DNA from: Acetobacteraceae bacterium | Lineage (GTDB): Bacteria > Pseudomonadota > Alphaproteobacteria > Acetobacterales > Acetobacteraceae | Length of the DNA stretch: 64,000 bases | NCBI GenBank assembly: GCA_965231175.1 | Contig: CBDDMJ010000009.1 | Location: 60,496-124,495, forward strand | Direction of reading: 5' to 3' | Position numbers and translations under genes: made by a program | The notes under the pieces: generated by a model | Database searches by the model: none | Told to the model about the DNA's origin: nothing | What the model saw: the letters and a program-made list of their open reading frames with translations, nothing else | In this document: in pieces, positions 5,011-26,504 of the stretch | How the letters are laid out: every line of letters starts with the position of its first letter | Numbering within the stretch: the stretch's first letter is position 1

Positions 5011-5081
5011 AAGGCAAGGAAGCAGCAGGTAAACCGGCGGGCCAATGTGTTTTCAATGCAGTGGGATTGTTTTCGCATTTA

Positions 5082-6779
5082 TCAAAGATTTCCAGCGGCC
5101 AATAGATCGGCTGCGTGATGGGCGGCGCGGGCGGATAACGCCATATAGGTCAGGGACGGGTTTTGAACTGCGGTGGATGTCATGCAGGCGCCATCCGTAA
5201 TGAATAAATTTCCTACATCGTGGCACTGGTTCCATCCATTCAGCACCGAGGTTTTTGGATCCCGTCCCATACGGGCTGTACCCATTTCGTGAATGCAGTC
5301 TCCCGGTATGCTTGGAACAATCGTTTCAGGTTCAGGGCTATCGATATCCACAGCGCCGATTTTTTGAAGAATTTCAACGGCGTCTTTTGACGCTGCACGA
5401 ACGAGTTTCCATTCATTCTTGCCCATGACAGCATCGATATCGGCAATCGCCCCACCCCATTGGTCGGTTCCGCCCTTGTAAATCCGCACGCGATTTTCTG
5501 AATTCGGCAGGGTTTCGCCGAACATATCCAGGGTGACGCGCCAATTCCCCGGCATGCGGTTGCTTTTCTTGAAGGCTTCCCCGATACCGGGCCGGTTCCC
5601 CGACCAGCCCGGACGCGCGCAGTATACCTGGAAAGCAAACCCGCGCAGATAGGCTTCATCGATTTCCGTTACGTTTCGATAACGTGGAATGTAACTGGGG
5701 GTGGGGCGCCTGCCCGAATAATATTCATCCTCAAATCCCGGTAATGTGGCGCTGATGCGCGGCCCGCGCACATGGTCCATGAGATTTCTACCAACCTGAT
5801 CGCTCCGATTGGCCAGGCCATTCGGAAAGCTTGCAGATTTTGAATTCAACAGGATGAGCGCCGTGGCGATTGTCGAGGCATTTAGAAATATCAGCCTTGC
5901 ATTATAGATGCGCCGTTCTCTGGTTTGCGTATCGATCACATTGACGCCGGTTACCTTTTGGGTCCGGGCGTCATAATTGACCGAATTTACGATCGTATCC
6001 GTCAGAACGGTTAAATTTCCGGTCTGTCTGGCGGCGGGAATTGTAGCCGAGACAGATGAGAAATAAGCGCCGAAGCTGCATCCATGAAAACATTGGTTGC
6101 GTACCTGACACTGTCCGCGACCGAGGGCGGCCTGTTGGTCCGTTACCCGGCGGAGATTTGCCACCCTGCCGATGATGAGTTTGCGCGTCGGGTAATTCGT
6201 TTCAAGACGTTTCTTGAATTCTGTTTCTGCACAGGTCATCTCGAACGGCGGCAGAAAATCGCCGTCGGGTAATTGGGCAAGCCCTTCCGTAGTACCGGAT
6301 ATACCGATAAATGGCTCAATTTTGTCGTACCAGGGGGCGATGTCTTCATACCTGATGGGCCAATCGACGCCGTGCCCATCTTTAAGATTTGCTTCAAAAT
6401 CCATTGGCGACCAACGATAGCAGAGCCGGCCCCACATTAATGAACGGCCACCGAGCTGGTAACCACGCCGCCATTTATAGGGTTTGTTTTGGGCCGTGCG
6501 GTAAGGGTGCTCGCTGTCCTTAACCCAGAATTGTTTTGTAGACTCCTTGAAAGCGTAAAGGTCATTCTGCACCGGATAATCCCGCGCCACCTCGTCCTCC
6601 GATACGCGATCGAGATTTGTGGTCTCCCATGGATCAAGCATATCCGTGTAATCTTTTGCAGGTTCGATATCGCGGCCGCGTTCGATCATCAAAACCTTCA
6701 GGCCGCGTTGCGTCAGTTCCTTGCCGACCCATCCACCGCTGATGCCCGAGCCTACGACGATTGCATCGAAATCAGACAT
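5082..6779 (-). CDS. GMC-family FAD oxidoreductase (large subunit of a membrane/periplasmic sugar dehydrogenase type)
   Basis: 565 aa with the N-terminal FAD fold DAIVVGSGISGGWVGKEL and a C-terminal GMC block HEMGTARMG. It is the last gene of the lower-GC minus-strand operon. Confidence 0.85.
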   Translation of the reverse strand: MSDFDAIVVGSGISGGWVGKELTQRGLKVLMIERGRDIEPAKDYTDMLDPWETTNLDRVSEDEVARDYPVQNDLYAFKESTKQFWVKDSEHPYRTAQNKPYKWRRGYQLGGRSLMWGRLCYRWSPMDFEANLKDGHGVDWPIRYEDIAPWYDKIEPFIGISGTTEGLAQLPDGDFLPPFEMTCAETEFKKRLETNYPTRKLIIGRVANLRRVTDQQAALGRGQCQVRNQCFHGCSFGAYFSSVSATIPAARQTGNLTVLTDTIVNSVNYDARTQKVTGVNVIDTQTRERRIYNARLIFLNASTIATALILLNSKSASFPNGLANRSDQVGRNLMDHVRGPRISATLPGFEDEYYSGRRPTPSYIPRYRNVTEIDEAYLRGFAFQVYCARPGWSGNRPGIGEAFKKSNRMPGNWRVTLDMFGETLPNSENRVRIYKGGTDQWGGAIADIDAVMGKNEWKLVRAASKDAVEILQKIGAVDIDSPEPETIVPSIPGDCIHEMGTARMGRDPKTSVLNGWNQCHDVGNLFITDGACMTSTAVQNPSLTYMALSARAAHHAADLLAAGNL

Positions 6780-6816
6780 TCGTCATTCCTCTGAAAGGTT
6801 GGTTTCGCCTGCAATA

Positions 6817-7407
6817 TCAGCCATCCGTTGCCCAGGTTTTACCCACAGGCGTGCAGGCATTCCAGACCCCGGGAATAGCGTGATACCGCAATTCAATTGT
6901 CGCGCCGGGTTTGGATAAATAATAACTTTCGGCGATCGTCGATTTGATTTCCAGATAATCCTTAAGTGGATGATCGGCTGCGGAAAATATTTCCTGGTCG
7001 AGCGGCTTCAACCGGGCGAAACGCTGTGCCGGAGACAGGGCGATGAAGCTTCCCTCAGGCCCGTTCAGCTGGTTTTGCAGCCGGGCAAACACTGTTCGCC
7101 AGCGCCGTTTTGTATCCGGTGATGCCCAGCTGCAAAATAATTCGCCCAGAATAGCGGGAACGCCTGCTGCGAGTGCGCCTGGGGTCTCCGTCGCGGGAAT
7201 GATTGTATCGGCAAGTGCTTCCAGAAAGATGGCTTCTTTTGCGGTCAGCCTGCTTGTCTCCATCGGAGACGTGCGCCCATGGATGGGTGCGACGATCGTT
7301 ACAGCCAGCAGGTTTTGTATGAATGCGCGGCGACTCGCGTCGGCAGTTACTTTTGGCTTTTCTGATATCCCGGTTTTAGCGGCGGCAATTTTGAATGGCT
7401 CATCCAA
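6817..7407 (-). CDS. gluconate 2-dehydrogenase subunit 3 family protein (small Tat-signal subunit)
   Basis: 196 aa with a twin-arginine-like signal SRRAFIQNLLAVTIVAP. LTAKEAIFLEALADTIIP..TPGA is typical of this family. It lies immediately upstream of the GMC gene. Confidence 0.75.
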   Translation of the reverse strand: MDEPFKIAAAKTGISEKPKVTADASRRAFIQNLLAVTIVAPIHGRTSPMETSRLTAKEAIFLEALADTIIPATETPGALAAGVPAILGELFCSWASPDTKRRWRTVFARLQNQLNGPEGSFIALSPAQRFARLKPLDQEIFSAADHPLKDYLEIKSTIAESYYLSKPGATIELRYHAIPGVWNACTPVGKTWATDG

Positions 7408-8164
7408 AGAATTGTTCCGGATAGAGAGAGTTATTTGGCGTTGTTTTACTCATCGAAGCGAAGAAATCTTTTTCATAAACCCGAAAAAAAACGGCGACTC
7501 TCTGGCCCGGATGACTTCGTTCAAAGTTGCAGTGAGGAACATTTCCAGAAACGACGAACACCGAGCCTGCCGGGCCCAGCATGGGCTTGGACCCGGGGTC
7601 ATCCAAGCTGCATGAATAGCAATACTGATAGGCTTTTCCGGTTTGACCCGCCTGCAAAGCCGCGGTCACCGGCTCGCGCAGGGCTGGCCATACCACGAAA
7701 GCACCATCGTTCTTGCTGAAGACGTCATCGAGATAGACAAATATGATTGCCACGGGAGTCTTTGGAGATGGCGTTTTTTCCGCTTCCGGAAAACCATCCA
7801 AATGGGGAGCGTTGGCTAATCCGCCGGTCTCTCTGACGGCAATTTGCGGATTAATAACGCAACGCAATGGCGTTGCCGTGTGGATGCCAAGCAAAAAATT
7901 CAAGCCGCGCTTTTCCACCACCGCGCGCAACCTGTTCAAGGCAAATGCGTCGCTGGGTTCGCCGATCCAATCAGCGACGCTTGCATCGATCAGTTTCTGA
8001 CACGCCGTTACATAAGCGATCTGGTTGCGTTCCTGCTCGGTTTGACCGCTGTCGTAGGCTGCGAGAATTTCGTTGCGAACATCTTCGACCAGCGCGGCAG
8101 GTAGTTTTTCCGCGAACTCGGCAACCCCATGCGTTTGATACCGGGAATGATCTACTGCTATCAT
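7400..8164 (-). CDS. PhyH-like Fe(II)/2-oxoglutarate dioxygenase family protein (tentative)
   Basis: 254 aa. It has a possible facial triad, H-x-D in APHLDG and a distal H in GNVPHCN, followed by R (GQRVAVFFR). It overlaps the next gene by 8 nt. Confidence 0.5.
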   Translation of the reverse strand: MIAVDHSRYQTHGVAEFAEKLPAALVEDVRNEILAAYDSGQTEQERNQIAYVTACQKLIDASVADWIGEPSDAFALNRLRAVVEKRGLNFLLGIHTATPLRCVINPQIAVRETGGLANAPHLDGFPEAEKTPSPKTPVAIIFVYLDDVFSKNDGAFVVWPALREPVTAALQAGQTGKAYQYCYSCSLDDPGSKPMLGPAGSVFVVSGNVPHCNFERSHPGQRVAVFFRVYEKDFFASMSKTTPNNSLYPEQFFG

Positions 8165-8204
8165 GTGGGGTCTTTCCAGTGGGAAGATCGGCTCGAAACG
8201 CTGT

Positions 8205-10016
8205 TCAACCTTCGACGCCGGACGTCATTTCATGGCGTGCCTCTGCCGGGCGGGGCTTAAGCGAAACGTTTCCACTCCTGACGAAATCGTGAAACAGCGC
8301 GCAACGGACGTTGAGCGTCTCGAAGCTGCCGACATCGACAACCCGGCCGGCTATCATGAATATGACTTCATCGAACAGCGGCAGCAAATGCATGCGGTGC
8401 AAAGCCACGATCATGGTATTGCCGGTGAAGCCTGCCAGCAGACCGTGCATGACCCGCGTTTCGGTATCCGGATCCAGATTGCTGGTCGGTTCATCCAGAA
8501 GGACCAGGCTGCTATCCATCGCGGCGGCGACGCCCCGCGCCAGGGCGATACGCTGCCGCTGGCCGCCCGACCAGTTCGCGCCGCTTTCGTTCACGCGCGT
8601 TGTCATTCCCTTTGGCAGTTCGGAAATGAATTCCGTGGCGCATACGATCGCCATCGCCAGATCAATTTGTGCTTCCGGCAGGGAGGCGCCGAGCGTCAAA
8701 TTCTCAGCCACCGTACCGATAAATAATTCCGCTTCCTGCGGTATCAAAGTCGCTTCCCGCCGCAGATCCGTAGACTCCGCGATGCGTTCGTCGAGGCAGA
8801 TTTGTCCCGTACTCGCAATTTCCAATCCCGACAGCAAGCGCAGCAGGCTGCTCTTTCCAGCACCGCTGGGGCCGACCAGCGCATAACGCTTGCCGCGCTT
8901 CAGCGTTAAATCAACGGAATTCAGGCTGAATTCGTTTTGTTCGCCATTGAAATAACGGTAGCTGAGGTCGCGCAGCTGAAGTTCCCGCCAGTTGGTTGGT
9001 GCGATCTCAGAGACCTGGCTGGATTGCGGGGCTTGCAGGATGAATCGGGAAGAGGCAAAGCCTGCCTGGTATTCCGCAAGCATCGCGAAATTGTTGGCAA
9101 TTACGCTCATGACACCTTCGGTACGTCTGGTATATTCATAAACCATGTAAAGACTGCCCAGCGCCAGGGCGTGTGCACCGCCGCGCAAAGCCAGCATGGC
9201 ATACATTGCCAACAGCAGGCACCAGACCGCAGTGCTGGATATCGAGATACTCACCCATTTTGCCTCGTTGATCCAGGCAAAGCGGCGTAACGGCACCAGC
9301 AGCTCGTTCAGGCGCCTTTGGATCAGCACTCTTACGCCCTGGTAGCGGCGCAATGCGTAAATGGTGAACAGATTCGCAAACGTATCAGTCCAGGCAACGC
9401 TGGCATTTCGTTCCGCCTGGTTGCGCTGGGTCGACAGGTTTATCAAAATCCGGTCGAAGCCCATGCTGATGAGGCTGATCGAGGAGAAACCGAATATGGC
9501 CGCCACACCGACCCAGGGAGAGATGAAGCATAAGGCGGCTATCGGCCCGATCAGACGCACAAAATTTTCAAGATAAATATACTGGCTTTCGGAAAACTGA
9601 TGCAGCGCGTTCGTGCTTTGGATGACACGCTGTGTGGTATCCGCGGAATGCTGGGTGCGGTGCCAAACAAGCGGTGCCAGTAAAAGACGACGCAACAGTT
9701 CCATTGTGAACGCTGTCCGTATTTTCAACGCCACGTTGCGCTCTAAAATCCGGCCGGACAGATGCAGCGCCCAGCTTGCCACGGTGGTCAGAAATACCAG
9801 CCCGAGGTCGCGCCCGGCTTCGGCAATGCCGGGGCTGCCATGGTGCTGAATGGCATTCAAAGCGTGTCCTACAAACCAGGGTACTGCCAGTAAGAGCATC
9901 TCCGCGACCAATAGCAGGCCGAAGGCGCCGATCATTTTGATCCGGCTGCCGGAGGCATAATGCCACAGCCCGAAATATAAGGCGCCGAACTGGCCGAACA
10001 GAGAGCGAATGTTCAT
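8205..10016 (-). CDS. ABC exporter, fused TMD-NBD half-transporter
   Basis: The start was chosen at MNIRSLFGQ... (ATG 10016-10014). It has 6 predicted TM helices, then Walker A GPSGAGKSS, signature WSGGQRQR and Walker B LVLLDEPTS. Its ATG overlaps the TGA of the upstream chitin-synthase-like gene (ATGA). Confidence 0.85.
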   Translation of the reverse strand: MNIRSLFGQFGALYFGLWHYASGSRIKMIGAFGLLLVAEMLLLAVPWFVGHALNAIQHHGSPGIAEAGRDLGLVFLTTVASWALHLSGRILERNVALKIRTAFTMELLRRLLLAPLVWHRTQHSADTTQRVIQSTNALHQFSESQYIYLENFVRLIGPIAALCFISPWVGVAAIFGFSSISLISMGFDRILINLSTQRNQAERNASVAWTDTFANLFTIYALRRYQGVRVLIQRRLNELLVPLRRFAWINEAKWVSISISSTAVWCLLLAMYAMLALRGGAHALALGSLYMVYEYTRRTEGVMSVIANNFAMLAEYQAGFASSRFILQAPQSSQVSEIAPTNWRELQLRDLSYRYFNGEQNEFSLNSVDLTLKRGKRYALVGPSGAGKSSLLRLLSGLEIASTGQICLDERIAESTDLRREATLIPQEAELFIGTVAENLTLGASLPEAQIDLAMAIVCATEFISELPKGMTTRVNESGANWSGGQRQRIALARGVAAAMDSSLVLLDEPTSNLDPDTETRVMHGLLAGFTGNTMIVALHRMHLLPLFDEVIFMIAGRVVDVGSFETLNVRCALFHDFVRSGNVSLKPRPAEARHEMTSGVEG

Positions 10017-11851
10017 ACCGTTACTTTGCAAATCATGAGTGTGAACAACAGCGATAGTCCGGACAATTCCGCCAGCGGGCTTAGACCGTGAACGAAAATC
10101 CCCGGCAATGACAATCCGATCCCGACGGCACAGAGGTTCAACACCAGCCAGCCGGCGAAGAACAAATCCCGCCAATTGCGAAGTTTCCTGAATTCAAGCA
10201 TGCCGAGATTACTGTCCCTCTGGCCTTTGGTACCCCAGCTGAGATCGTGAAACTTGAAGACGGAATAAGTAACCAGCAACGTTTGAATGATCGGATTGAC
10301 GAACCAGGAATATTCGAAAAAACGCCTCAGGATCAGCCATCTGTGCTTATAATCCGTGAGCGCGGTTTTGAATGCCGCCAACGCAATCGGCAACATTAAA
10401 ATCATCGGCGCGCGCCATGAAAAACCGGTGGCCAGCGCCATTGTTATCGATACGAAGGCGCAGGCGGACGCAATATCACGGCAGACCGGATAAATTCGCT
10501 TGGTGGATTTGGGGGCTTTGTAGGGGGTGTAAGAAATCAGGATCGCCGCCGCGGCAATGGAAATCAAGGTTGTTGCCTCGACAAGCGGACCGGAACGCTG
10601 GATTGCCAACCAAACGCAGACCCATGTGCAAATGGTAACGGCCGGCGTGATGAATTGCAGAATGATGGTGAGAAGCTGCCAGAGCATTGCCAAAGTAAAA
10701 TGCAGCTTGCGAGTTCTTGAACGATCGGCGCGGGTTAGCTGATCCGGCAATTTGCCGAGCATCCAAAGCCGGCAAGCGGTCGTACTGTTGATCCACCGCC
10801 TGCGCTGCTGCAACAACTCGGACATGGAGCGGCAAGCGTCCGTGACCGCATGGGCGTCCGCACAAAGGTCCAATTTCCAGTCGCGATTGCCGGCAAATAC
10901 GATTTCATTGCCCAGAACGCGATCCTCAGCCAAAAACATCAATCTTTCGAGATGCGTGCTGGGATTCGTGCCCCGGAGGTAGCGCTCTACCGGGCTGCCG
11001 AGATCCTTGGATCCGGGCCTCGCCTCACTTGTGAGGGCCAGCCATCGCGTGCCGGAGAACTGGCCGGGAAGCACGCTTAAATGACCGCAGGCCAATTCAG
11101 CCGGCAACGAATAGGCGGCCTGCGTCGCGAAGTCAAAAAATTGCCATGCGTGCAGAATTTGATTTCTGGATCTGGCTGCCGGCAACTTCACGCGGGAGGC
11201 CAGCGCACCGACATTTGGCTGTAATTCCATATGATGCACCATATAGCGCATAGCATGCATGTGGATTTTCGTTCCGGTATCAAGCTGATAGCAAAAATTA
11301 GGATTTAGTTTCGTACAGAGATGCCCGAAGAATAAACCATGGCTGTCGAGCTTGCCGCGATTTTCAGGCTTGACGCAGACCACAAAATTAACCAGTGCCG
11401 CGTGTTCCGCCATCATCTGCGGGCGCGTTCCCATCGCATCCAGCAATGCCCCCGCATCAAGGGATGAGAAGTGGAGGTCCCGATTAGGAAGTGAGGAATT
11501 TTCTGTTGAAAACAACTGGTTTTCAACAAGAAACCGCATGATCGAGGCGGATAGCTTTTCGGCGCCATCGGCCAAAATACAGACGCAGGAATTGGCGCGT
11601 TCGAGGGCTGGACGTTCGGTCGCAAAATCCAGCAGGCTGATCAATAAGGCAGATAATGTTGCAAGGAATGCCTCGACCGGCTCATTATACAAAGTTATGC
11701 AGATCAGATTTGTCGGCGACAAATAATTGTCCAGAGATGTTCTGCCAGCATAATCAAGATAATGATACGTGAAGCCTTCGTTCTCTTCAGTAATGCTGGC
11801 CCATTCGGCATCAATCGTAATTGCTTTACGCAACTTGAAATCAGCGCCCAT
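10013..11851 (-). CDS. eukaryote/fungal-type chitin synthase-like GT2 glycosyltransferase
   Basis: 612 aa with ICITLYNEP, CILADGAEK, YQLDTGTK, QFFDF..HLSVLPGQFSGTRW, FLAEDRVLGNE and QQRRRWINS. C-terminal TM helices and DLSWGTKG follow. GGGAG lies 6 nt upstream of the ATG at 11851. Confidence 0.8.
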   Translation of the reverse strand: MGADFKLRKAITIDAEWASITEENEGFTYHYLDYAGRTSLDNYLSPTNLICITLYNEPVEAFLATLSALLISLLDFATERPALERANSCVCILADGAEKLSASIMRFLVENQLFSTENSSLPNRDLHFSSLDAGALLDAMGTRPQMMAEHAALVNFVVCVKPENRGKLDSHGLFFGHLCTKLNPNFCYQLDTGTKIHMHAMRYMVHHMELQPNVGALASRVKLPAARSRNQILHAWQFFDFATQAAYSLPAELACGHLSVLPGQFSGTRWLALTSEARPGSKDLGSPVERYLRGTNPSTHLERLMFLAEDRVLGNEIVFAGNRDWKLDLCADAHAVTDACRSMSELLQQRRRWINSTTACRLWMLGKLPDQLTRADRSRTRKLHFTLAMLWQLLTIILQFITPAVTICTWVCVWLAIQRSGPLVEATTLISIAAAAILISYTPYKAPKSTKRIYPVCRDIASACAFVSITMALATGFSWRAPMILMLPIALAAFKTALTDYKHRWLILRRFFEYSWFVNPIIQTLLVTYSVFKFHDLSWGTKGQRDSNLGMLEFRKLRNWRDLFFAGWLVLNLCAVGIGLSLPGIFVHGLSPLAELSGLSLLFTLMICKVTV

Positions 11852-12283
11852 GCAAGCTCCCGTTACTGGATGAAGGACGAAAATTCATTAAGAAAACGGG
11901 CCTTGCACGAATGGATTTTGCAACCGGGCGGTTGATAATGCCCCTGGTTGGGTTTGCGAGAAACCGCTGTTAAGACACTTAGAAACGATATCCATTGCTC
12001 CTGAGTAATCAAGCGAAGTAGGACGAAAAAACCACACAACACAAGCGTTTTTTGCCTTAAATAATTTTAAACCATACATTTAATATTTGTAACCCGCGTT
12101 TTTCGTTTGGTATTCTGTCTTAGAAATAAAGACTTATCACTCTCATTTGATTTCAAGTCTCTGTTAGGGCTCGATGGCATTTAGAAGCATTATTTTTGGT
12201 TTTTTAATGTTATCGGGTTGATGCAGGAAATTATTCCGAGGTCATGACTTGCATCCCATACACAAAACAACAAAAAGGGATCG
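11852..12283. promoter_or_regulatory. AT-rich divergent intergenic/promoter region between the chitin-synthase operon and the acyltransferase gene
   Basis: This 432-bp non-coding gap is the most AT-rich stretch of the window, with runs such as TTTAATATTTGTAA and TTATTTTTGGTTTTTTAATG. It lies between divergently oriented genes. No specific promoter boxes were assigned. Confidence 0.35.
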
Positions 12284-13429
12284 ATGTTAGGGCCAAGCAG
12301 TCTCAAGGAACACAGTGTAAACAGGGATATCGAGACCCTGCGCGGGGTCGCCATCCTGTTTGTCCTTTTTCATCATTTCGGATTTCTGATCATAGGCATG
12401 CCTGCATATAAAATATTCAAAAGCGATTTTGGCTTGTGGAGCGGCGTGGATCTGTTTTTCTGTATTTCAGGGTTCATTATTTCCAAGAACTATTATGAAA
12501 ATTTTGCGCGAGCCGGAAAAAGCAGTCTATTTGCTGTGACCGCGGCTTTTTGGATCAAGCGCATTTTCAGGCTTTGGCCGTCTGCCTGGCTGTGGCTTGC
12601 CCTGATGGTTTGGCAGTTTACCGTACTCGGACTGGCACCTTTCTGGAACAATTTTTCAGATACGGCGGCTGCAGTGCTCGAGGTCGCCAATTTTCACTGG
12701 TGGATGTGCGCCAACGGGCAAAGCCAATGCGGGCAAATCTCGCATTACTGGAGCTTATCGTTGGAGGAGCAATTTTACCTGTTGTTCCCGCTGCTGTTTC
12801 TCCTGCCCCGCCAGCTGCATCTATGGTTGTTTCTTGGTATTGCCGCCATTCAAATTCCCATCCCAAGGGCACCATGGCAAGATATTCTATGGTTCACGCG
12901 GACCGACGCTATTTCTCTGGGCGTATGCATATATCTGCTGTCGCGGTCGCAGGCCTATCAGCAGATGCGACCGATTTTTCTACGCAATAAGGTTGCGGCT
13001 GCGGTCATAAGTGTTGGATTGGCGGTTCTGCTGGCCGCATTTGCAGAACCGCAAGGATTTCCGCAACGGGCGATCGTGCCATTTGCCACCGGTATGGTGG
13101 CGATCATTTCAGCTTTGTTTGTTCTCCTCGCTTCTTATGATGGTGACTGGCTTTTCAACCTGCCGGTATTGCGTCCCATCCTTCTTTGGATCGGCGCGCG
13201 CTCCTATGCGATCTATTTGATTCAAGTTTTTGCCTACCAGGCTGGACAATACCTTGTTTCCAAAAGCTGGGCGGTTCGCCTGGTGCCGGCTGGCTGGCTG
13301 CCGGTCGCGACCGCCATACTGACCTTTGGTCTGTTAGGAATTCTGGCAGAATTAAATTATCGATTGCTGGAAAGGCCTTTGCGAAAGCAAGGCGCGGTTT
13401 TCGCTTCCCGAATGATGCTTAGAGTCTAA
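12284..13429 (+). CDS. acyltransferase family 3 (OafA/NolL/NodX/ExoZ-type integral-membrane O-acyltransferase)
   Basis: 381 aa and polytopic. It has the N-terminal family signature RDIETLRGVAILFVLFHH. Confidence 0.8.
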   Translation: MLGPSSLKEHSVNRDIETLRGVAILFVLFHHFGFLIIGMPAYKIFKSDFGLWSGVDLFFCISGFIISKNYYENFARAGKSSLFAVTAAFWIKRIFRLWPSAWLWLALMVWQFTVLGLAPFWNNFSDTAAAVLEVANFHWWMCANGQSQCGQISHYWSLSLEEQFYLLFPLLFLLPRQLHLWLFLGIAAIQIPIPRAPWQDILWFTRTDAISLGVCIYLLSRSQAYQQMRPIFLRNKVAAAVISVGLAVLLAAFAEPQGFPQRAIVPFATGMVAIISALFVLLASYDGDWLFNLPVLRPILLWIGARSYAIYLIQVFAYQAGQYLVSKSWAVRLVPAGWLPVATAILTFGLLGILAELNYRLLERPLRKQGAVFASRMMLRV

Positions 13430-13432
13430 TCA

Positions 13433-13572
13433 AAGGAAGCAGCCGCTTTTTTGAAAAAAAGCGGCGCAAAAAACTTTTTTGAATCTGGAGCCGGGGCGTT
13501 TCAAACACCGATGACCCAGATTAACAAAAGTCTTTTTGCTGCTTTTTCTTCAGAAAAAGCAGTGCTTGCTTA
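13433..13572. repeat. MITE/REP-like element, copy E3 (short form)
   Basis: AAAGGAAGCA + GCCGCTTTTTT/AAAAAAAGCGGC hairpin + GCAAAAAACTTTT ... CCCAGATTAACAAAAGTCTTTTTG + CTGCTTTTTC/GAAAAAGCAG hairpin + TGCTTGCTTA. Confidence 0.8.
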
Positions 13573-16845: not shown

Positions 16846-16995
16846 GAAGAAAGCAAGCAGTTCTTTTTTGAAAAAAAGAACCAAAAAACTTTTGCCATGC
16901 TGGACCATAGGCGTTTGCCTGACAGCGCCCAGGCCCAGACTCATAAAGTTTTTTTGCTTCTTTTTGTTCACAAAAAGAAGATACTTGCTTTGCTT
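16846..16995. repeat. MITE/REP-like element, copy E4 (short form)
   Basis: GAAGAAAGCAAGCA + GTTCTTTTTT/AAAAAAGAAC hairpin + CAAAAAACTTTT ... GGCCCAGACTCATAAAGTTTTTTTG + CTTCTTTTTGT/ACAAAAAGAAG hairpin. Confidence 0.8.
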
Positions 16996-19540
16996 ATGCT
17001 TGCTTGAACGCGGCATTCACCCAATAGCGCGGGGTTTTTTTGTAGCCGGTGTGGCAGTGGATGGTGACGGCCTGGGCCAGGGTGCGGCGGTCCAGCAGGG
17101 TGATGTGGTTCAGGAACCCGGCGGTGGCGGTGGCATAGCAGGCGGCGAAGGCGCGGGTGATCAGGCCGGGGCCGGTGGAGAGCCATAGTGTGTCGGTATC
17201 GCCGCGGTTGATGGCGGTTACGGCATCGGCCAGGGCGCGCATGATGACCGGGTGGCGCGGGATTGCGGCGATGAAGTTGTTGGCGAGGGTGCCGTGGTCT
17301 TCCTGGTATAATATCAGCTCGGCGCTGCCGAGGAGCGGGTGCAGTGATGCGGTGCAGCGGTCGTCGGCATCGGCGTAGATGCCGCCGGCCACGGCGAGCC
17401 ATGCCAGGCGGAACAGATCGGCTTTTTGTGCCGGCTCGCGGATGCGGCTGTAGGCGGCCTGGACGGCCGGGGGCGTGTGGCGGCGGAGAAATTGCTGCGC
17501 TGTGGTATCGTTGGCGATCTGCGCCCGGTAGTCCGGATTATGCTGCTGCCAGCTGCGCATCAGGGCGGCGACATCGGCGGGGATGTTTGTGGTGTCCCAG
17601 TAGTGCAGAATGGTTTTGGGAATGATTTGCGATGTTGGCGTGCTTGTATGGCTGGCCAGATACCCGGCCTCGGCGAGGGCCACCAGCAGGGTGACGGCGG
17701 CGGCTGTGCTATCCGGATTGGCGGCGACCACCGGGCGCAGGGCGGCCAGGCGGGGCTGCGGCGGCAGGGTTTGCAGTTTTTGCAGCTGCTGCACCAAAGC
17801 GGCATCCAGGCAGTAGTCATCGAGCCGTTGTCCGTAATGGTTTTGCGAGATATTGGGCGAGCGGCCTTGTAGGCGGATGGCAGGCAAGGTGAGCTGGCAG
17901 TAACGCTGCAAATGTCCGCGCGCCTCATCCAGCCGCAGCAGCATGGTGGTGAGGCGGATCAGCTCGGCCTGCACGGCCTCGTCCTGCGGATTTTGCGTCT
18001 CAGCGGCCTGGTATTGCGCCAGGGCTTCGGCAAACCGGCATTGCCGCTCCGCCAGCAGCCCCGCCATGCGCAAGCGCTGGGCGCGCTCGCCGGCGGTACT
18101 GGCCGGGGATGAGGCGAGGCAGGCTTGCACGGCAGCTGTATCGGCGGTGAGCATTTCGCTTTCGCAGGATTCCAGCCAGACGCCGAAATGGCGCGGCCAG
18201 GCGGCACGCGCGGCGCGGCCTCGGCTGAGCGCCTCTGCCAGGCGGCCGGACTGGCGCAGCAGGATCATTTCGATATGCGTGAGTTCGGGTGTGGGCGGAA
18301 ATTCCGCCCGCAGATTTCGCAACGCCGCCAGTGCCGGCTCGATCGACCCGCCATCGGCCAGAGCCCTGACCGCGCCGAGGCGGAAGGCCAGAAGCTGCGG
18401 CTGGCGTTGCGCCGCGGCCTGGTAGATTTGCAGTGCTGCCTGCGGGTTCTGCGCCAGCATCGCCTGCTCGGCCTGCTGGATGGTGATGTAACGGCAGAGC
18501 GGGTCCAGGCCTGCGGCCTGCGCCAACAACGCATCGCATTCCTGCTGCCGCCCCAGCAGACGCGCCTGCACCGCCATGTGTAGCAGGCTTTGCGCATGGG
18601 CCGGATGGCGATGATGCGCGGTGTGGAACAGCGCCAGTGCCGCCTCATGCGCGCCGGCCGCGCGCTCGATCATGCCGGCCACCGTCAGCGCATTCAGGCT
18701 GGCGGGATGTTGCCGCAATACGGCTTGCGCCGTGGCCCGGGCGGCCGTGAAATCCCCGGCGTCCCGCAGCTCATTGGCGATTTCAAGCCGGGCCCAGTCG
18801 TTCCCCGGCTCGGCGCGGTGTGCCCGTTCGAAATACGCCAGCGCGGCGGCGCGGTCTCCGGCGGCGCGCGCGCAATGGCCGAGACCGAGGCAGGCGTAGA
18901 ACTGTTCCGGCTGGTCCGCCAGAATTTCGTGATAGACCGCTGCCGCTGCGGCATGCTGCCCGGCCTCGCGCAGACCGGCGGCAATCTCCAGCCGGGCCAC
19001 CAGATTGTCGGGCTCGGCCGCCAGCGCGGCCTGGAAATGCGCCGCCGCCGCGTCGCCGTCTCCCGCCGCTCTGGCGCAGAAACCAAGGCCGATTTGCGCC
19101 AGGGCGGCATGCGCCGTTGCCAGCAGCGCCTGATAGATTGCCCGGGCTTCCACCAGCCGTCCCTGCTCGCGCCGCACGGTTGCCAGTTCCAGCCGTGGCC
19201 AGGGATTGCCGTCATCGGGCGCGCAGGCAAACCAACCTGCTGCTGCGGCAAGATCCCCGCGCGCCTTGGCGCACAGGCCGCGCCCCAGCAATGCGTAAGT
19301 CTGGTCCGGCTGGGCGGCGAGGATGGCGGCATAGGCTGCCTCCGCCTCATCAAGGCGGTTGAGGTGCCGCAGCGCCGCCCCGGCCTCCAGCCGCGCGATC
19401 AGATGATCCGGTGCCGCCTGCAAAGCGTTTTCAAAACAGGCGAGAGCGGCGGCGTGTTCATGGCGGTCCCGCGCCGCCAGGCCGAGGCTAAGATGCGCCT
19501 CGGCCGCCGCGAGGTCTTCAGGCGAAGGAGAACAGCTCAA
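16994..19540 (-). CDS. TPR-repeat protein fused to a C-terminal DXD-motif glycosyltransferase domain (Gly_transf_sug/OCH1-like)
   Basis: 848 aa. About 560 aa form Ala-rich TPR-like repeats (A..F..AL...P....A...LA). ILHYWDTTNIPADV and ADLFRLAWLAVAGGIYADADDRC follow. Confidence 0.7.
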   Translation of the reverse strand: MSCSPSPEDLAAAEAHLSLGLAARDRHEHAAALACFENALQAAPDHLIARLEAGAALRHLNRLDEAEAAYAAILAAQPDQTYALLGRGLCAKARGDLAAAAGWFACAPDDGNPWPRLELATVRREQGRLVEARAIYQALLATAHAALAQIGLGFCARAAGDGDAAAAHFQAALAAEPDNLVARLEIAAGLREAGQHAAAAAVYHEILADQPEQFYACLGLGHCARAAGDRAAALAYFERAHRAEPGNDWARLEIANELRDAGDFTAARATAQAVLRQHPASLNALTVAGMIERAAGAHEAALALFHTAHHRHPAHAQSLLHMAVQARLLGRQQECDALLAQAAGLDPLCRYITIQQAEQAMLAQNPQAALQIYQAAAQRQPQLLAFRLGAVRALADGGSIEPALAALRNLRAEFPPTPELTHIEMILLRQSGRLAEALSRGRAARAAWPRHFGVWLESCESEMLTADTAAVQACLASSPASTAGERAQRLRMAGLLAERQCRFAEALAQYQAAETQNPQDEAVQAELIRLTTMLLRLDEARGHLQRYCQLTLPAIRLQGRSPNISQNHYGQRLDDYCLDAALVQQLQKLQTLPPQPRLAALRPVVAANPDSTAAAVTLLVALAEAGYLASHTSTPTSQIIPKTILHYWDTTNIPADVAALMRSWQQHNPDYRAQIANDTTAQQFLRRHTPPAVQAAYSRIREPAQKADLFRLAWLAVAGGIYADADDRCTASLHPLLGSAELILYQEDHGTLANNFIAAIPRHPVIMRALADAVTAINRGDTDTLWLSTGPGLITRAFAACYATATAGFLNHITLLDRRTLAQAVTIHCHTGYKKTPRYWVNAAFKQA

Positions 19541-21401: not shown

Positions 21402-22607
21402 TTATAAGGCGATGACCCCGGCATCCGCGCTGTTCGGAAAGATGCGCGCTAACGCGGCGTTGCTAAGGCCCAAATGAGTTTGCAGGGCGGATTTTGCCAC
21501 GCTGCGAACGTCCGTGGTGGGGGCGAGGTCGCGGTTTTCGAACAACTGGCTGGGGCGCAGGCCGGGCCAGGTACCGGCGATTTTGCCGCCGCGCAGGGCG
21601 CCGCCGAGCAGCAGTGCCATGGTGGCGGTGCCGTGATCGGTGCCTTTGGTGCCGTTGATGGCGGCGGTGCGGCCGAATTCGGTGATCACCAGCACCATGG
21701 TGTTGCGCCAGGCTGGGCCGAGAGCGGTGCGCAGGGCAGCGAGCCCGGCATCCAGCCCGGTGAGCGGGGCTTGCAGGCCGTTGACCTGGTTGCCGTGGGT
21801 GTCCCAGCCTTGCAGCTGAAAGGCGGCGATGCGCGGGCCGTCCGGCGCGGCCAGCAGGGCGCCGGCCTGTTGCGCCATGGCGGGGAAATCCGCACGCGTG
21901 GCTTTGGGCTTGGTGCCATCGTCGCTCATGATGTCCACGGTCTGGCTGAGGATGCCGGCATCGAAGGCGGTGGATTTCAGGCCTTGCCGGATGGCCGGGC
22001 CGGTCAGCGGGTCCGGCGCGTTGAGGGCGGCGATGCGTGCGTACAGATCCGGCGGCGGTTTGGCGAAGCTCTCGACCGCATAGGAGGCGACCGGCATTTT
22101 GCCACGGATCAGCAGCGGCGTGCCGATGCCGACCGATAGCCCGGCCGGCTCGGTGCCGCCGGTTGGCGGCAGTTCCGCGATCGCCCGGTTGAGCCAGCCC
22201 GAGGTGATCCCGGTTTCATCCGGCACGCCGAGCTGCAACAGGTCCTGCGCCTCGAAATGGCTGCGGGTGCGGTAAGGACCGGCCACCGCGTGCACCGGCA
22301 GCACCTGCCCGGCCTGGTACATCGTATAAATGTTGGCCAGGGCCGGATGCAGGCCGTAGAACCCGCCGAGGTCGAACAGGCCGTTGGGCTGGCCGGGGGC
22401 GGGAGGCACCAGCGGCGCGCGCAGGCTCAGCAGATTGGCATCGCCGTACGGCACCACCGCCGACATGCCGTCCAGCGCGCCGCGCAGCAGCACGACGACG
22501 AAGCGCTGGTCTCCCGGGGCGGCGGCCAGGGCCAGTTTCACTCTGGCGGCGCTGGCCACCACGGCCAGGCCGAGCAATGTGGCCCGCCGCGTGAGATGCA
22601 GGGTCAT
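21402..22607 (-). CDS. DUF1501 domain protein (sulfatase-like, Tat-exported)
   Basis: 401 aa with Tat-type signal LTRRATLLGLAVVASAA and the GWDTH block (LQGWDTHGNQ). It is paired with DUF1800 upstream. Confidence 0.85.
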   Translation of the reverse strand: MTLHLTRRATLLGLAVVASAARVKLALAAAPGDQRFVVVLLRGALDGMSAVVPYGDANLLSLRAPLVPPAPGQPNGLFDLGGFYGLHPALANIYTMYQAGQVLPVHAVAGPYRTRSHFEAQDLLQLGVPDETGITSGWLNRAIAELPPTGGTEPAGLSVGIGTPLLIRGKMPVASYAVESFAKPPPDLYARIAALNAPDPLTGPAIRQGLKSTAFDAGILSQTVDIMSDDGTKPKATRADFPAMAQQAGALLAAPDGPRIAAFQLQGWDTHGNQVNGLQAPLTGLDAGLAALRTALGPAWRNTMVLVITEFGRTAAINGTKGTDHGTATMALLLGGALRGGKIAGTWPGLRPSQLFENRDLAPTTDVRSVAKSALQTHLGLSNAALARIFPNSADAGVIAL

Positions 22608-22611
22608 GGGT

Positions 22612-23964
22612 CTATCTCCGTTGAAATTCCGGCGCGGCGAATAGCAGGGTCAGCGCCTCGCGCCGTGAGCCGGCCGCCGCCATCGCCGTGGCGGTGGCCG
22701 GGCGCAGCAGCGGCCCGAGCGCCACTGCTGCGATCGCTGCCGGCTGCGGGCCATTCGCACCATTGTCGAAGCGCGCGGCATAGGTATAGGCCCAATCGAT
22801 CCGGCTCAGCACCGCTGCCCCGCCATCCCAGTCGGCGGCCTGGCTGGACCAGCCGTTCGGCAACGGGGCGGCCCATAACGGCTGGCCCATCTGGCTCAGT
22901 ACGGCGGCGTAGTTCACCGGCGGCTGGTCCGGCGGCGGCGGGGCGGCGCGAATGGCGGAGAGAACGAACTCCATCGGGGTTTTGAGTTTGGTGAGGCCGC
23001 TCCAGGCGGCCGTTACTTCCAGCAGCGCCAGGGCCGCCGCCGCCAGGTCACCGCCGGTCTCCCGCAAGCGCCCGGCGATGTGGGCCACCGCCGCCGGCGG
23101 CGGGGTATCGGCGATGAAATGCGCCGCCAGCTGCTGCGCGATATGGTTGTAAGTGGCCGGATGCCGCGACAGGAAGGTCAAGGCGTCGATGCCGCCCTGT
23201 TCGCCGCCGCCGAAGCGCCGGCCCATGACCGTCTGCGGCCCCGGCTGATGCGCCCGCGGGCGGAACAGAAAGCCGGTGGCATCCCCCTGCCCGTCTTTGG
23301 CGCTGATCGACCAGCCGGTGAGCAGCCTGGCCATGCTGGTGACATCGGCCTGGCTGTACCCGGCGGCCAGCCCGACAGTGTGCAGCTCCAGGCATTCGCG
23401 GCCGAGGTTTTCGTTCAGGCCGCGGCCGGTGCGCTGACCCGCCGGGCTATCCGGTCCGACCGAAATATCGTTGGCGAGGTAGCGCAGCATCGCCGGATGA
23501 CGCTCTGCCGCCAGCAGCATGCCGGTGAAATTGCCGGTGACATGCGGGCGGATCGCCTCCCGGATGAAGGGTCCGGCCAGCGCGGCGGTTTGGCCCTGCA
23601 AAATGCTGACGGTGAAATGATTGGCCCAGAACCAGACCAGATGTTCACGAAACCCGACCGGCACTTGCGCCGCCCAGCCCATCTGCGCGGTGCTGTCGGC
23701 GCGGTACAGCGCCTTGGCCTGGGATTTGAACGGCGCTGCCGGCGTTCCGGCCTGGAGCAAGGCGCGCCTTGCCTTGAGATCCGCGATGGTGGCCTGCACC
23801 GCGGTCCGGCCATCCGGCAAGCCGGCAAAACCGGGGCTGTTCAAGGCCGGGTCCGGTCCGGCGAGGTCGGCGCGCAGCAGCGCCATGGCATCGTCCGTGG
23901 CCGCGGTACCCCATAACGGGCCCAGCCCGAAGCGGATCAGCGCAGGCGCCGTCATGTTGTCCAT
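22612..23964 (-). CDS. DUF1800 domain protein
   Basis: 450 aa with the LVWFWANHFTVS block characteristic of DUF1800. It lies 4 nt upstream of the DUF1501 gene. Confidence 0.85.
   Translation of the reverse strand: MDNMTAPALIRFGLGPLWGTAATDDAMALLRADLAGPDPALNSPGFAGLPDGRTAVQATIADLKARRALLQAGTPAAPFKSQAKALYRADSTAQMGWAAQVPVGFREHLVWFWANHFTVSILQGQTAALAGPFIREAIRPHVTGNFTGMLLAAERHPAMLRYLANDISVGPDSPAGQRTGRGLNENLGRECLELHTVGLAAGYSQADVTSMARLLTGWSISAKDGQGDATGFLFRPRAHQPGPQTVMGRRFGGGEQGGIDALTFLSRHPATYNHIAQQLAAHFIADTPPPAAVAHIAGRLRETGGDLAAAALALLEVTAAWSGLTKLKTPMEFVLSAIRAAPPPPDQPPVNYAAVLSQMGQPLWAAPLPNGWSSQAADWDGGAAVLSRIDWAYTYAARFDNGANGPQPAAIAAVALGPLLRPATATAMAAAGSRREALTLLFAAPEFQRR

Positions 23965-24422: not shown

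Positions 24423-26502
<2,080 letters not shown>

Positions 26503-26504
<2 letters not shown>

Follow-up and report, generated by a model that had tools for sequence, protein, structure and literature searches.

A bacterial-type chitin synthase gene coupled to an ABC exporter gene in a low-GC block of an Acetobacteraceae contig

We analyzed a 64,000-nucleotide stretch of DNA from an Acetobacteraceae bacterium (GenBank assembly GCA_965231175.1, contig CBDDMJ010000009.1, positions 60,496 to 124,495 of the forward strand), hereafter the window, around a gene that an earlier sequence-only reading had taken for a fungal or eukaryote-type chitin synthase (CHS) homologue inside a bacterial operon. The 612-amino-acid (aa) open reading frame (ORF) that it named is present at 10013-11851, and its strand, which the reading had not given, is minus. 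The gene belongs to a compact locus of ~8.5 kb with five co-directional genes and one divergent gene, and the following features were recognized there.

10013-11851, minus strand: bacterial-type CHS of glycosyltransferase family 2 (GT2), CHS division-1-like, 612 aa (ORF, Pfam, structure model, Foldseek)
10013-10016, minus strand: ATGA overlap of the CHS stop codon (TGA) and the start codon (ATG) of the ATP-binding cassette (ABC) exporter gene, translational coupling (sequence read directly)
8205-10016, minus strand: ABC half-transporter with fused transmembrane and nucleotide-binding domains (TMD-NBD), type IV/ABCB-like exporter, 603 aa (Pfam ABC_membrane and ABC_tran)
7400-8164, minus strand: orphan 254-aa cytoplasmic protein (identical in the sister contig L064)
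6817-7407, minus strand: small subunit of the Gluconate_2-dh3 family (G2DH3) with the twin-arginine signal SRRAFIQNLL (Pfam PF13618, E = 1e-16)
5082-6779, minus strand: large subunit of a GMC-family FAD-dependent sugar dehydrogenase, 565 aa (Pfam GMC_oxred_N and GMC_oxred_C)
11852-12283, no strand: divergent intergenic region of 432 bp, ~41% GC, presumed to hold promoters or regulatory sites (sequence and GC profile)
12284-13429, plus strand: Acyl_transf_3 (AT3) integral-membrane O-acyltransferase without an SGNH domain, 381 aa (Pfam PF01757, E = 5e-23)
5050-13500, no strand: low-GC block that holds the whole gene set, ~41-59% GC vs. 63-71% in most of the flanks (composition profile)
13442-13465, no strand: perfect GC-clamped 24-nt palindrome GCCGCTTTTTTTCAAAAAAGCGGC 3' of the AT3 stop codon (terminator scan)

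The CHS ORF runs on the minus strand from its ATG at 11851 down to its TGA at 10013 (ORF and translation), and a GGGAG Shine-Dalgarno sequence lies 8 nt 5' of the ATG. A plus-strand reading of 10013-11851 was rejected, its translation having stops throughout. The product is laid out as a short N-terminus, a GT-A catalytic domain with motifs M1-M8, and six C-terminal transmembrane helices with an SWGTKG loop (M9). We used a nine-motif list (M1-M9: TMYNE, DGR, KxxKL, DxGT, QxFEY, VLPGA, EDR, QRRRW, and SWG) taken from PMC12653383 and PMC9556331, and all nine were found, in order, in the window protein; the motif strings quoted in the sequence-only reading likewise occur verbatim, and in the order given there, in the translation. 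Residue numbers below are those of the full-length protein; row 1 of our alignment and the AlphaFold2 model lack Met1, and their numbering is the full-length number minus 1.

M1, residues 53-57: TLYNE (within ICITLYNEP)
M2, residues 95-97: DGA (within CVCILADGAEK)
M3, residues 164-168: NRGKL
M4, residues 191-194: DTGT (within YQLDTGTK)
M5, residues 237-241: QFFDF
M6, residues 260-264: VLPGQ (HLSVLPGQFSGTRW, V260-Q264)
M7, residues 309-311: EDR (within FLAEDRVLGNE)
M8, residues 349-353: QRRRW (within QQRRRWINS)
M9, residues 538-543: SWGTKG (within DLSWGTKG)

At Pfam gathering thresholds, the protein matched Chitin_synth_1 (PF01644; 54.2 bits vs. a cut-off of 25) and Chitin_synth_2 (PF03142; 51.5 bits vs. 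27), whereas the generic Glyco_trans_2_3 (PF13632) stayed under its cut-off (23.6 bits vs. 27). In the NCBIfam scan (E up to 0.01), the only matches were PgaC (19 bits vs. a cut-off of 422) and an XrtP-associated glycosyltransferase (16 bits); the NodC model was not matched. A phmmer search of the PDB returned CHSs only (Phytophthora sojae Chs1: 1e-27; Saccharomyces cerevisiae Chs1: 4e-23; Candida albicans Chs2: 3.5e-21; hereafter PsChs1, ScChs1, and CaChs2), and a profile of 39 bacterial homologues matched CHSs in the PDB at 1e-98 to 1e-90, with hyaluronan synthase (HAS) next at only 1e-3; this profile aligns to PsChs1 over profile positions 32-603, transmembrane domain included. The AlphaFold2 model, built on the 39-homologue alignment, has a mean predicted local distance difference test (pLDDT) score of 89.1 and a predicted template-modeling score (pTM) of 0.90. 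When it was compared with the PDB by Foldseek, the best 20 matches were all cryo-EM structures of eukaryotic CHSs (E = 8e-22 to 3e-18, query template-modeling [TM] score = 0.66-0.72), followed at a distance by hyaluronan synthases (E = 1e-9, TM score = 0.38) and the BcsA/CesA cellulose synthases (E = 1e-6, TM score = 0.3). Superposition on the CaChs2, ScChs1, and PsChs1 structures, a check that the sequence-only reading had proposed together with the profile comparison, thus gave a TM score of ~0.7 for the predicted model. Four independent tests, on sequence and on modeled structure, agree in identifying the protein as a genuine member of the CHS family and not a generic GT2 enzyme, and both profile and structure matches favor CHS over the NodC-, hyaluronan-, and cellulose-synthase-type enzymes that the earlier reading had named as the competing placement.

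Residues of known importance are retained as well. Mutation of D291, D382, E495, D496, E432, Y433, V452, P454, R536, or W539 in PsChs1 abolishes or greatly impairs activity (PMC9556331). In the phmmer alignment, D291, D382, E495, and D496 correspond to D95, D191, E309, and D310 of the window protein, and E432, Y433, V452, P454, R536, and W539 to D240, F241, V260, P262, R350, and W353; judged by this alignment, the mutationally essential residues are all identical or conservatively replaced. Among the 39 bacterial homologues, 32 columns are invariant, including those of the NE, DG, QxD, EDR, QRRRW, and WGTKG motifs. The small residues S357, T385, and L412 of PsChs1 accommodate the N-acetyl group, and BcsA has histidines there (His224 for S357; PMC9556331); they align to G166, T194, and ~V221 (the last with a 2-residue alignment gap). 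As the sequence-only reading had noticed, several transmembrane helices follow the catalytic domain: there are six hydrophobic helices (383-401, 421-439, 460-478, 481-499, 563-581, and 590-608), and the SWGTKG loop lies between helices four and five, as in PsChs1.

Eukaryotic class I-III CHSs (PsChs1, 7wjm; CaChs2, 7stl; ScChs1, 7xs6) share the nine motifs in the same order and, according to the model, the same fold of GT domain, interface helices, and six transmembrane helices, with ~18-20% identity in the structural alignment. They differ from the window protein in their N-terminal domain (MIT/linker/swap), which builds a domain-swapped dimer. The absence of the long fungal N-terminal extension from the window protein, also remarked on in the earlier reading, was confirmed by the Pfam scan, in which PF08407 (Chitin_synth_1N) had no match and the GT domain begins at ~residue 45. 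Because the domain is missing, a dimer swapped in the eukaryotic style could not form in the same way.

A word-indexed search found 89 homologues, 84 of them proteins of ~500-760 aa from bacterial genomes and metagenomes, including Musicola (Dickeya) paradisiaca, Pectobacterium, Agrobacterium vitis, Nostoc, Leptolyngbya, and Rhodoferax. The closest non-self relatives of the window CHS are 47-48% identical to it. When 1.84 billion cluster representatives were searched exhaustively with the profile, 824 proteins had E <= 1e-30; the best 150 of the 824 all have E < 1e-117, are mostly ~600-700 aa long, and are of bacterial type only, so that the bacterial family comprises at least 150 clusters at 50% identity. 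CHS loci were nevertheless found in only 57 of 185,579 genomes (one genome per species), in keeping with the rarity in bacteria stated by the sequence-only reading; these 57 fall in Alpha-, Beta-, and Gammaproteobacteria, Bacteroidota, Cyanobacteria, and Desulfobacterota. No CHS homologue was present among the 72,556 plasmids of PLSDB. The family also includes large fusions, namely P0118 (2326 aa, with four stretches that match the CHS profile), P0112 (1122 aa), and P0133 (1022 aa).

We reconstructed a neighbor-joining tree (93 sequences, 578 columns, Kimura distances, 100 bootstraps, unrooted). HAS, NodC, and BcsA, with which the sequence-only reading had suggested a comparison, were too distant for reliable alignment, so they stand outside the tree, which has no outgroup; the window protein is on the CHS side. 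A set of 29 eukaryotic CHSs (fungi, oomycetes, plasmodiophorids, and protists) together with P0202 is split from the other bacterial-type sequences with 100% bootstrap support. P0202 is a short protein of 659 aa on a 3.5-kb contig, placed inside the eukaryotic and not the bacterial clade. The window CHS groups with P0002 and P0003 (100%), then with P0004 (86%), in a 12-member subclade (81%), and the CHSs of Musicola/Dickeya paradisiaca (P0069), Pectobacterium (P0073), and A. vitis (P0083) lie with it on the bacterial side. Hence the "fungal/eukaryote-type" label of the earlier reading stands as far as the CHS family is concerned, but not as a recent eukaryotic import, because the protein belongs to a distinct clade of short bacterial CHSs split off at 100% bootstrap. 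In this unrooted tree, none of the sampled eukaryotic lineages encloses the bacterial set; the lack of a root leaves the direction of transfer between the domains undecided. Given at least 150 clusters, four phyla, and this lack of nesting, the family may be ancient in bacteria and not the result of a single recent eukaryote-to-bacterium transfer.

Bacterial CHS genes were first described, from about a dozen genomes, by Gonçalves et al. (2016; BMC Evol Biol 16:252, PMC5122149). These authors reported short N-termini, low-GC islands, a setting in secondary-metabolite clusters (Teredinibacter and Cellvibrio), and operons with DUF1800/DUF1501, epimerase, efflux, and NodH-like (sulfotransferase) genes, and left undecided whether the enzymes yield a chitin exopolysaccharide or chito-oligosaccharides. 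The sequence-only reading had held product and role to be uncharacterized; we found no functional follow-up on the product of any bacterial CHS in the literature searched. The window CHS resembles the 2016 set in its short N-terminus without PF08407, its complete set of CHS motifs, its place in the same clade, and its low-GC setting. It differs in that the named members (Dickeya, Pectobacterium, Brenneria, A. vitis, Cellvibrio, and Teredinibacter) are only 25-32% identical to it, in its host, an acidophile lineage of the Acetobacteraceae, which is new relative to the 2016 taxa, and in its accessory genes, the gene being coupled to an ABC exporter and a GMC/G2DH3 dehydrogenase instead of being marked by DUF1800/DUF1501. 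Acetobacteraceae are found neither among the 57 loci of our species scan nor among the taxa in PMC5122149. The window CHS thus adds a new and divergent sequence to a bacterial clade that had been described before, from a new host lineage and with other accessory genes. DUF1800/DUF1501 genes are not adjacent to it, and an adjacent pair occurs in 16 of the ~61 other loci. A DUF1501 (401 aa) and DUF1800 (450 aa) pair does lie 10 kb away at 21402-23964 on the minus strand; this DUF1800 is 29% identical to the CHS-linked type and ~220 aa shorter (450 vs. ~670 aa), and the DUF1501 is 34-47% identical to the CHS-linked type over short segments.

The CHS gene does sit inside a bacterial operon, as claimed earlier: within the sequence ATGA, its stop codon and the start codon of the gene after it overlap. 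The 603-aa ABC product read from that start equals the called protein in a public collection. Its motifs are intact (Walker A GPSGAGKS, signature WSGGQ, Walker B LVLLDE); its NCBIfam matches are all to exporter families and all under the cut-offs, and its best PDB matches are ABCB exporters. The orphan 254-aa protein that follows had no match in Pfam (E up to 1), NCBIfam (E up to 10), or the PDB by phmmer (E up to 10), only itself as a match among 5.8 billion proteins, and no significant BLASTP similarity to the 330-aa hypothetical protein of the related CHS locus L062. Its single-sequence AlphaFold2 model is unusable (pLDDT 36); an HLDG...PHCNF spacing (HxD...H) hints, at the level of sequence, at Fe(II)/2-oxoglutarate oxygenases. 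The G2DH3 start overlaps the stop of this orphan gene by 8 nt, and the subunit is predicted to be the "hitch-hiker" partner through which the FAD dehydrogenase would be exported by twin-arginine translocation (Tat). In the GMC dehydrogenase, a CX6CX3C cluster at residue 224 has the cysteine spacing of a 3Fe-4S site in enzymes of this group. Among solved structures, the nearest relatives of the dehydrogenase are fructose dehydrogenase (large subunit, 8.6e-42) and 6a2u_B (7.7e-32), a chain deposited as a glucose dehydrogenase and known as the FAD-dependent glucose dehydrogenase of Burkholderia (B. cepacia). The AT3 gene, in which hydrophobic segments were seen, is divergently transcribed inside the low-GC block (GC 49-53%). 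In the intergenic region a promoter scan gave one sigma-70-like match (minus strand, 12093-12064), no more than expected by chance.

Neighboring genes were counted over ~61 non-redundant CHS loci. ABC orthologues (42-55% identity) sit beside the CHS gene in seven loci; those in L001, L002, L003, L008, L058, and L062, which hold the closest CHS relatives, lie within 6 kb of it. In another six loci the CHS gene is accompanied by fused ABC exporters of a second family, and fused exporters were counted near CHS in 13 loci. In L060/L061, whose CHS (P0004) is 40% identical to that of the window, there is a 4-nt overlap between the CHS gene and a G2DH3 gene, the G2DH3 products are 48-54% identical to the window's, and a GMC gene with 69% identity comes next; L025 has a GMC gene (43% identical) near CHS. 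Adenylation-domain proteins, resembling those of nonribosomal peptide synthetases (NRPS), are near CHS in 18 loci, and in the closest relatives they take the form of adenylation-peptidyl carrier protein (PCP)-thioesterase. Genes of the YdjC/ChbG family lie directly downstream of CHS in four loci, and Cupin_8 genes were counted in four. The YdjC/ChbG genes are 89-708 bp 3' of CHS on the same strand (L006, at 11724-12599; L021; L029; L037), in Cellvibrionaceae or other Pseudomonadota, and are accompanied by an adenylation-domain gene in three of the four loci, a thioesterase in two, and a fused ABC exporter in two. ChbG itself is established as a deacetylase of chitooligosaccharides (PMC9402603). 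Of the CHS relatives on long contigs, the closest is P0002 (47% identical), and its cluster in L058 (genes including L058:5809-7395 and L058:20391-21677) encodes a GlcNAc (N-acetylglucosamine) 2-epimerase and a TonB-type outer-membrane barrel as well as a NodU-like carbamoyltransferase; the carbamoyltransferase and the epimerase were each counted in one locus. Outer-membrane beta-barrel, DUF5916, or CBM9 genes are near CHS in some relatives.

The low-GC block is probably a horizontally acquired island. At its right edge, GC climbs from 52-55% to 65-69% within 300 bp at the palindrome GCCGCTTTTTTTCAAAAAAGCGGC, which we read from its sequence as a putative bidirectional terminator, while counts from the promoter and terminator scans as a whole were not above shuffled expectation. 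As for island markers, there are no tRNA genes and no Rfam matches in the window, and a megablast of 24 kb of the window, bearing on plasmid origin, gave only short matches, mostly to Azospirillum records. The elongation factor EF-G encoded in the flank (24423-26504) clusters at 90% identity with proteins of Acidocella and Acidiphilium, which marks the host as a member of the Acetobacteraceae related to these two genera, a bacterium of soil or acid water.

Window positions 11561-6783 have a 96.3% identical counterpart (L064:1-4779) in L064, a metagenomic contig from an independent assembly. The similarity ends exactly at the GMC start codon (window 6779-6783), and integrase/ArdC genes come next; in this sister strain, a mobile element thus adjoins or cuts short the operon. 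Past the breakpoint, L064:4746-13357 encodes a 502-aa integrase, an ArdC-N/MPTase protein, a second integrase, and an AIDA/Hint protein. Between the two contigs, dN/dS (the ratio of non-synonymous to synonymous substitution rates) is 0.079 in CHS (101 synonymous and 32 non-synonymous changes) and 0.064 in the ABC gene, values that indicate purifying selection on CHS. The synonymous rate, dS, drops from 0.35 in CHS to 0.08 in the ABC gene, and the 254-aa and G2DH3 genes show zero differences; this mosaic divergence suggests a recent recombination breakpoint inside the operon.

We propose that the window operon makes, with a beta-1,4 transferase acting on UDP-GlcNAc, an exported, oxidized, and possibly O-acylated chito-oligomer or soluble chitin-like glycan, a reading that we consider probable. 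As first gene of the acquired operon and translationally coupled to the exporter, the CHS would be an active, membrane-embedded inverting GT2 enzyme that builds beta-1,4-linked GlcNAc chains (chitin or chito-oligosaccharide) from UDP-GlcNAc. TLYNE, DG, NRGKL, and DTGT would form the uridine-binding tub, E309 and D310 of the EDR motif would place the donor and serve as general base, and R350, R352, and W353 of QRRRW, with QFFDF and the VLPGQ gate loop, would make up the entrance of the channel through the six C-terminal helices. A short or medium GlcNAc chain would then reach the periplasm or the exterior with help from the ABC exporter; the Tat-exported GMC pair would oxidize it in the periplasm, and AT3 might O-acylate it. 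Such a product, secreted and decorated, would be a chito-oligosaccharide or soluble glycan and would not serve as a structural polymer of the wall. We infer the GlcNAc sugar, the chain length, the division of labor between CHS channel and ABC exporter, and the substrates of the GMC pair and AT3. Conserved N-acetyl pocket residues, together with the YdjC/ChbG and GlcNAc 2-epimerase neighbors, point to GlcNAc as the sugar, and the recurring ABC, adenylation-PCP-thioesterase, YdjC, and NodU-like partners point to exported, decorated GlcNAc oligomers.

Several observations weigh against this proposal. Sugar, linkage, and chain length are inferred for every bacterial CHS, and three motifs of the window protein depart from the eukaryotic consensus (DGR to DGA, QxFEY to QFFDF, and VLPGA to VLPGQ). 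GMC is linked to CHS in only three of the loci. In L064, the homology stops at the GMC start and integrase/ArdC genes follow, so that GMC is absent from the corresponding position there and may be dispensable. The orphan 254-aa gene was not found near CHS elsewhere; nor was an AT3 homologue near CHS in any other locus, so the link between AT3 and CHS is one of position and GC content only. The modeled enzyme also keeps a complete six-helix channel domain and could export its own polymer, in which case the role of the ABC exporter would be unexplained and an exopolysaccharide would be favored. Under that alternative, which we think unlikely, a processive CHS extrudes long insoluble chitin via its own channel as a biofilm or capsule exopolysaccharide, in the manner of BcsA with cellulose, and the ABC and dehydrogenase genes are auxiliary or unrelated. 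A chitin exopolysaccharide is one possibility raised in PMC5122149. It would suit the full channel domain (profile positions 32-603 on PsChs1, TM score of the model ~0.7), the conserved gate-loop proline and QRRRW tryptophan, and the outer-membrane beta-barrel, DUF5916, or CBM9 genes of some relatives. However, Gram-negative synthase-dependent exopolysaccharide systems (Bcs, Pga, and Alg) normally need an outer-membrane porin or TPR component, and the window operon has neither an outer-membrane porin gene nor a TPR secretin gene. The translational coupling of the ABC gene to CHS, the fused exporters in 13 loci, and the small-molecule tailoring enzymes among the recurrent partners (adenylation-PCP-thioesterase, YdjC, and carbamoyltransferase) also speak against it.

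The motif deviations could instead reflect a diverged specificity, with another sugar, or a lipid or secondary-metabolite aglycone as acceptor, and export of the product by the ABC protein without any chitin being made. The adenylation-domain proteins of 18 loci, the secondary-metabolite clusters that hold CHS in Teredinibacter and Cellvibrio (PMC5122149), and an exporter of the ABCB/MsbA type, whose typical substrates are amphipathic, lend themselves to this explanation, but the N-acetyl pocket residues and the acceptor-stacking W353 and P262 are conserved, YdjC/ChbG-family and GlcNAc 2-epimerase neighbors indicate GlcNAc chemistry, and the window operon has no adenylation, polyketide synthase (PKS), or NRPS gene; we regard it as improbable. 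That the gene is an artifact or relic, through eukaryotic contamination, mis-assembly, or decay of an acquired pseudogene, is hardly credible. A GC content 8-15 points under that of the flanks and a mobile element abutting the operon in the sister contig might raise the suspicion, but the ORF is intact with a Shine-Dalgarno sequence, the flanks are ordinary Acetobacteraceae genes including fusA, and the protein lies in the bacterial, not the eukaryotic, clade. Contamination and a pseudogene are excluded by the ATGA overlap with a bacterial ABC gene, by the same arrangement in the independent assembly L064 at 96% identity, and by a dN/dS of 0.08.

The proposed exported and decorated chito-oligomer has a precedent in the logic of rhizobial Nod factors, which are made by a GT2 GlcNAc-oligomer synthase, tailoring enzymes, and an ABC exporter (NodC-NodB-NodA-NodIJ, with NodU/NodH/NodX/NodL). 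Across the bacterial CHS loci, each step of that pathway has an analogue, among YdjC, adenylation-PCP-thioesterase, the NodU-like carbamoyltransferase, AT3, and the fused ABC exporters. The window CHS, however, is not of the NodC family (no match to the model) and has a full CHS channel domain, unlike NodC, and its exporter is a fused half-transporter, not NodI/NodJ; we read the parallel as a functional resemblance and not as family membership. More tentatively, and with more doubt than confidence, bacterial CHS operons could be a NodC-independent route to secreted, decorated chito-oligosaccharides, of which the window operon would be a minimal variant. On such a route CHS would supply the GlcNAc backbone, to be N-acylated by YdjC deacetylases and adenylation-PCP-thioesterase proteins; carbamoyl-, sulfo-, and O-acyltransferases together with a periplasmic dehydrogenase would tailor the chain, and its release would fall to a dedicated ABC exporter. 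Deacetylase and acyl-loading genes are both missing from the window operon, and the minimal variant would produce an oxidized and/or O-acylated chito-oligomer in an acidophilic Acetobacteraceae bacterium.

Other glycan synthases offer partial likenesses. BcsA (cellulose), PgaC/IcaA (poly-N-acetylglucosamine), and class I HAS are, like CHS, membrane GT2 enzymes that work processively, have D,D,D,QxxRW, and contain a channel for translocation; unlike these exopolysaccharide systems, the window CHS has no PilZ domain for cyclic di-GMP and no BcsB, BcsC, PgaA, or PgaB partner. NdvB/ChvB with NdvA/ChvA, like the window operon, pair a glycan synthase with a fused TMD-NBD ABC exporter and deliver a soluble oligosaccharide to the periplasm. 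Their synthase family is unrelated to CHS, and the window ABC protein scores far under the cut-offs of two glucan-exporter models, with 152 bits for PRK13657 and 127 bits for chvA; such matches are generic to the exporter superfamily and do not indicate orthology. Compared with the 29 sampled eukaryotic CHSs, from which it is split at 100% bootstrap, the window CHS is set apart by being operon-encoded with an exporter.

Key signals in plant immunity and in symbiosis include chito-oligosaccharides and the lipo-derivatives of these (PMC5122149), and the choice between a chitin exopolysaccharide and secreted chito-oligosaccharides was posed in that 2016 paper, with no report of a product in the literature searched. 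The compactness of the window locus, its exporter coupling, and the purifying selection make it a convenient candidate for heterologous expression, and a 612-aa CHS without the eukaryotic N-terminal domain could be a minimal bacterial model for work on CHS structure and mechanism and on inhibitors. A family much larger and more diverse than the dozen genomes of 2016 re-opens the direction in which the gene moved between bacteria and eukaryotes.

Outside the low-GC island, the window also encodes, at 16994-19540 on the minus strand, an 848-aa protein with ~600 aa of TPR repeats and a C-terminal Gly_transf_sug domain (DXD).

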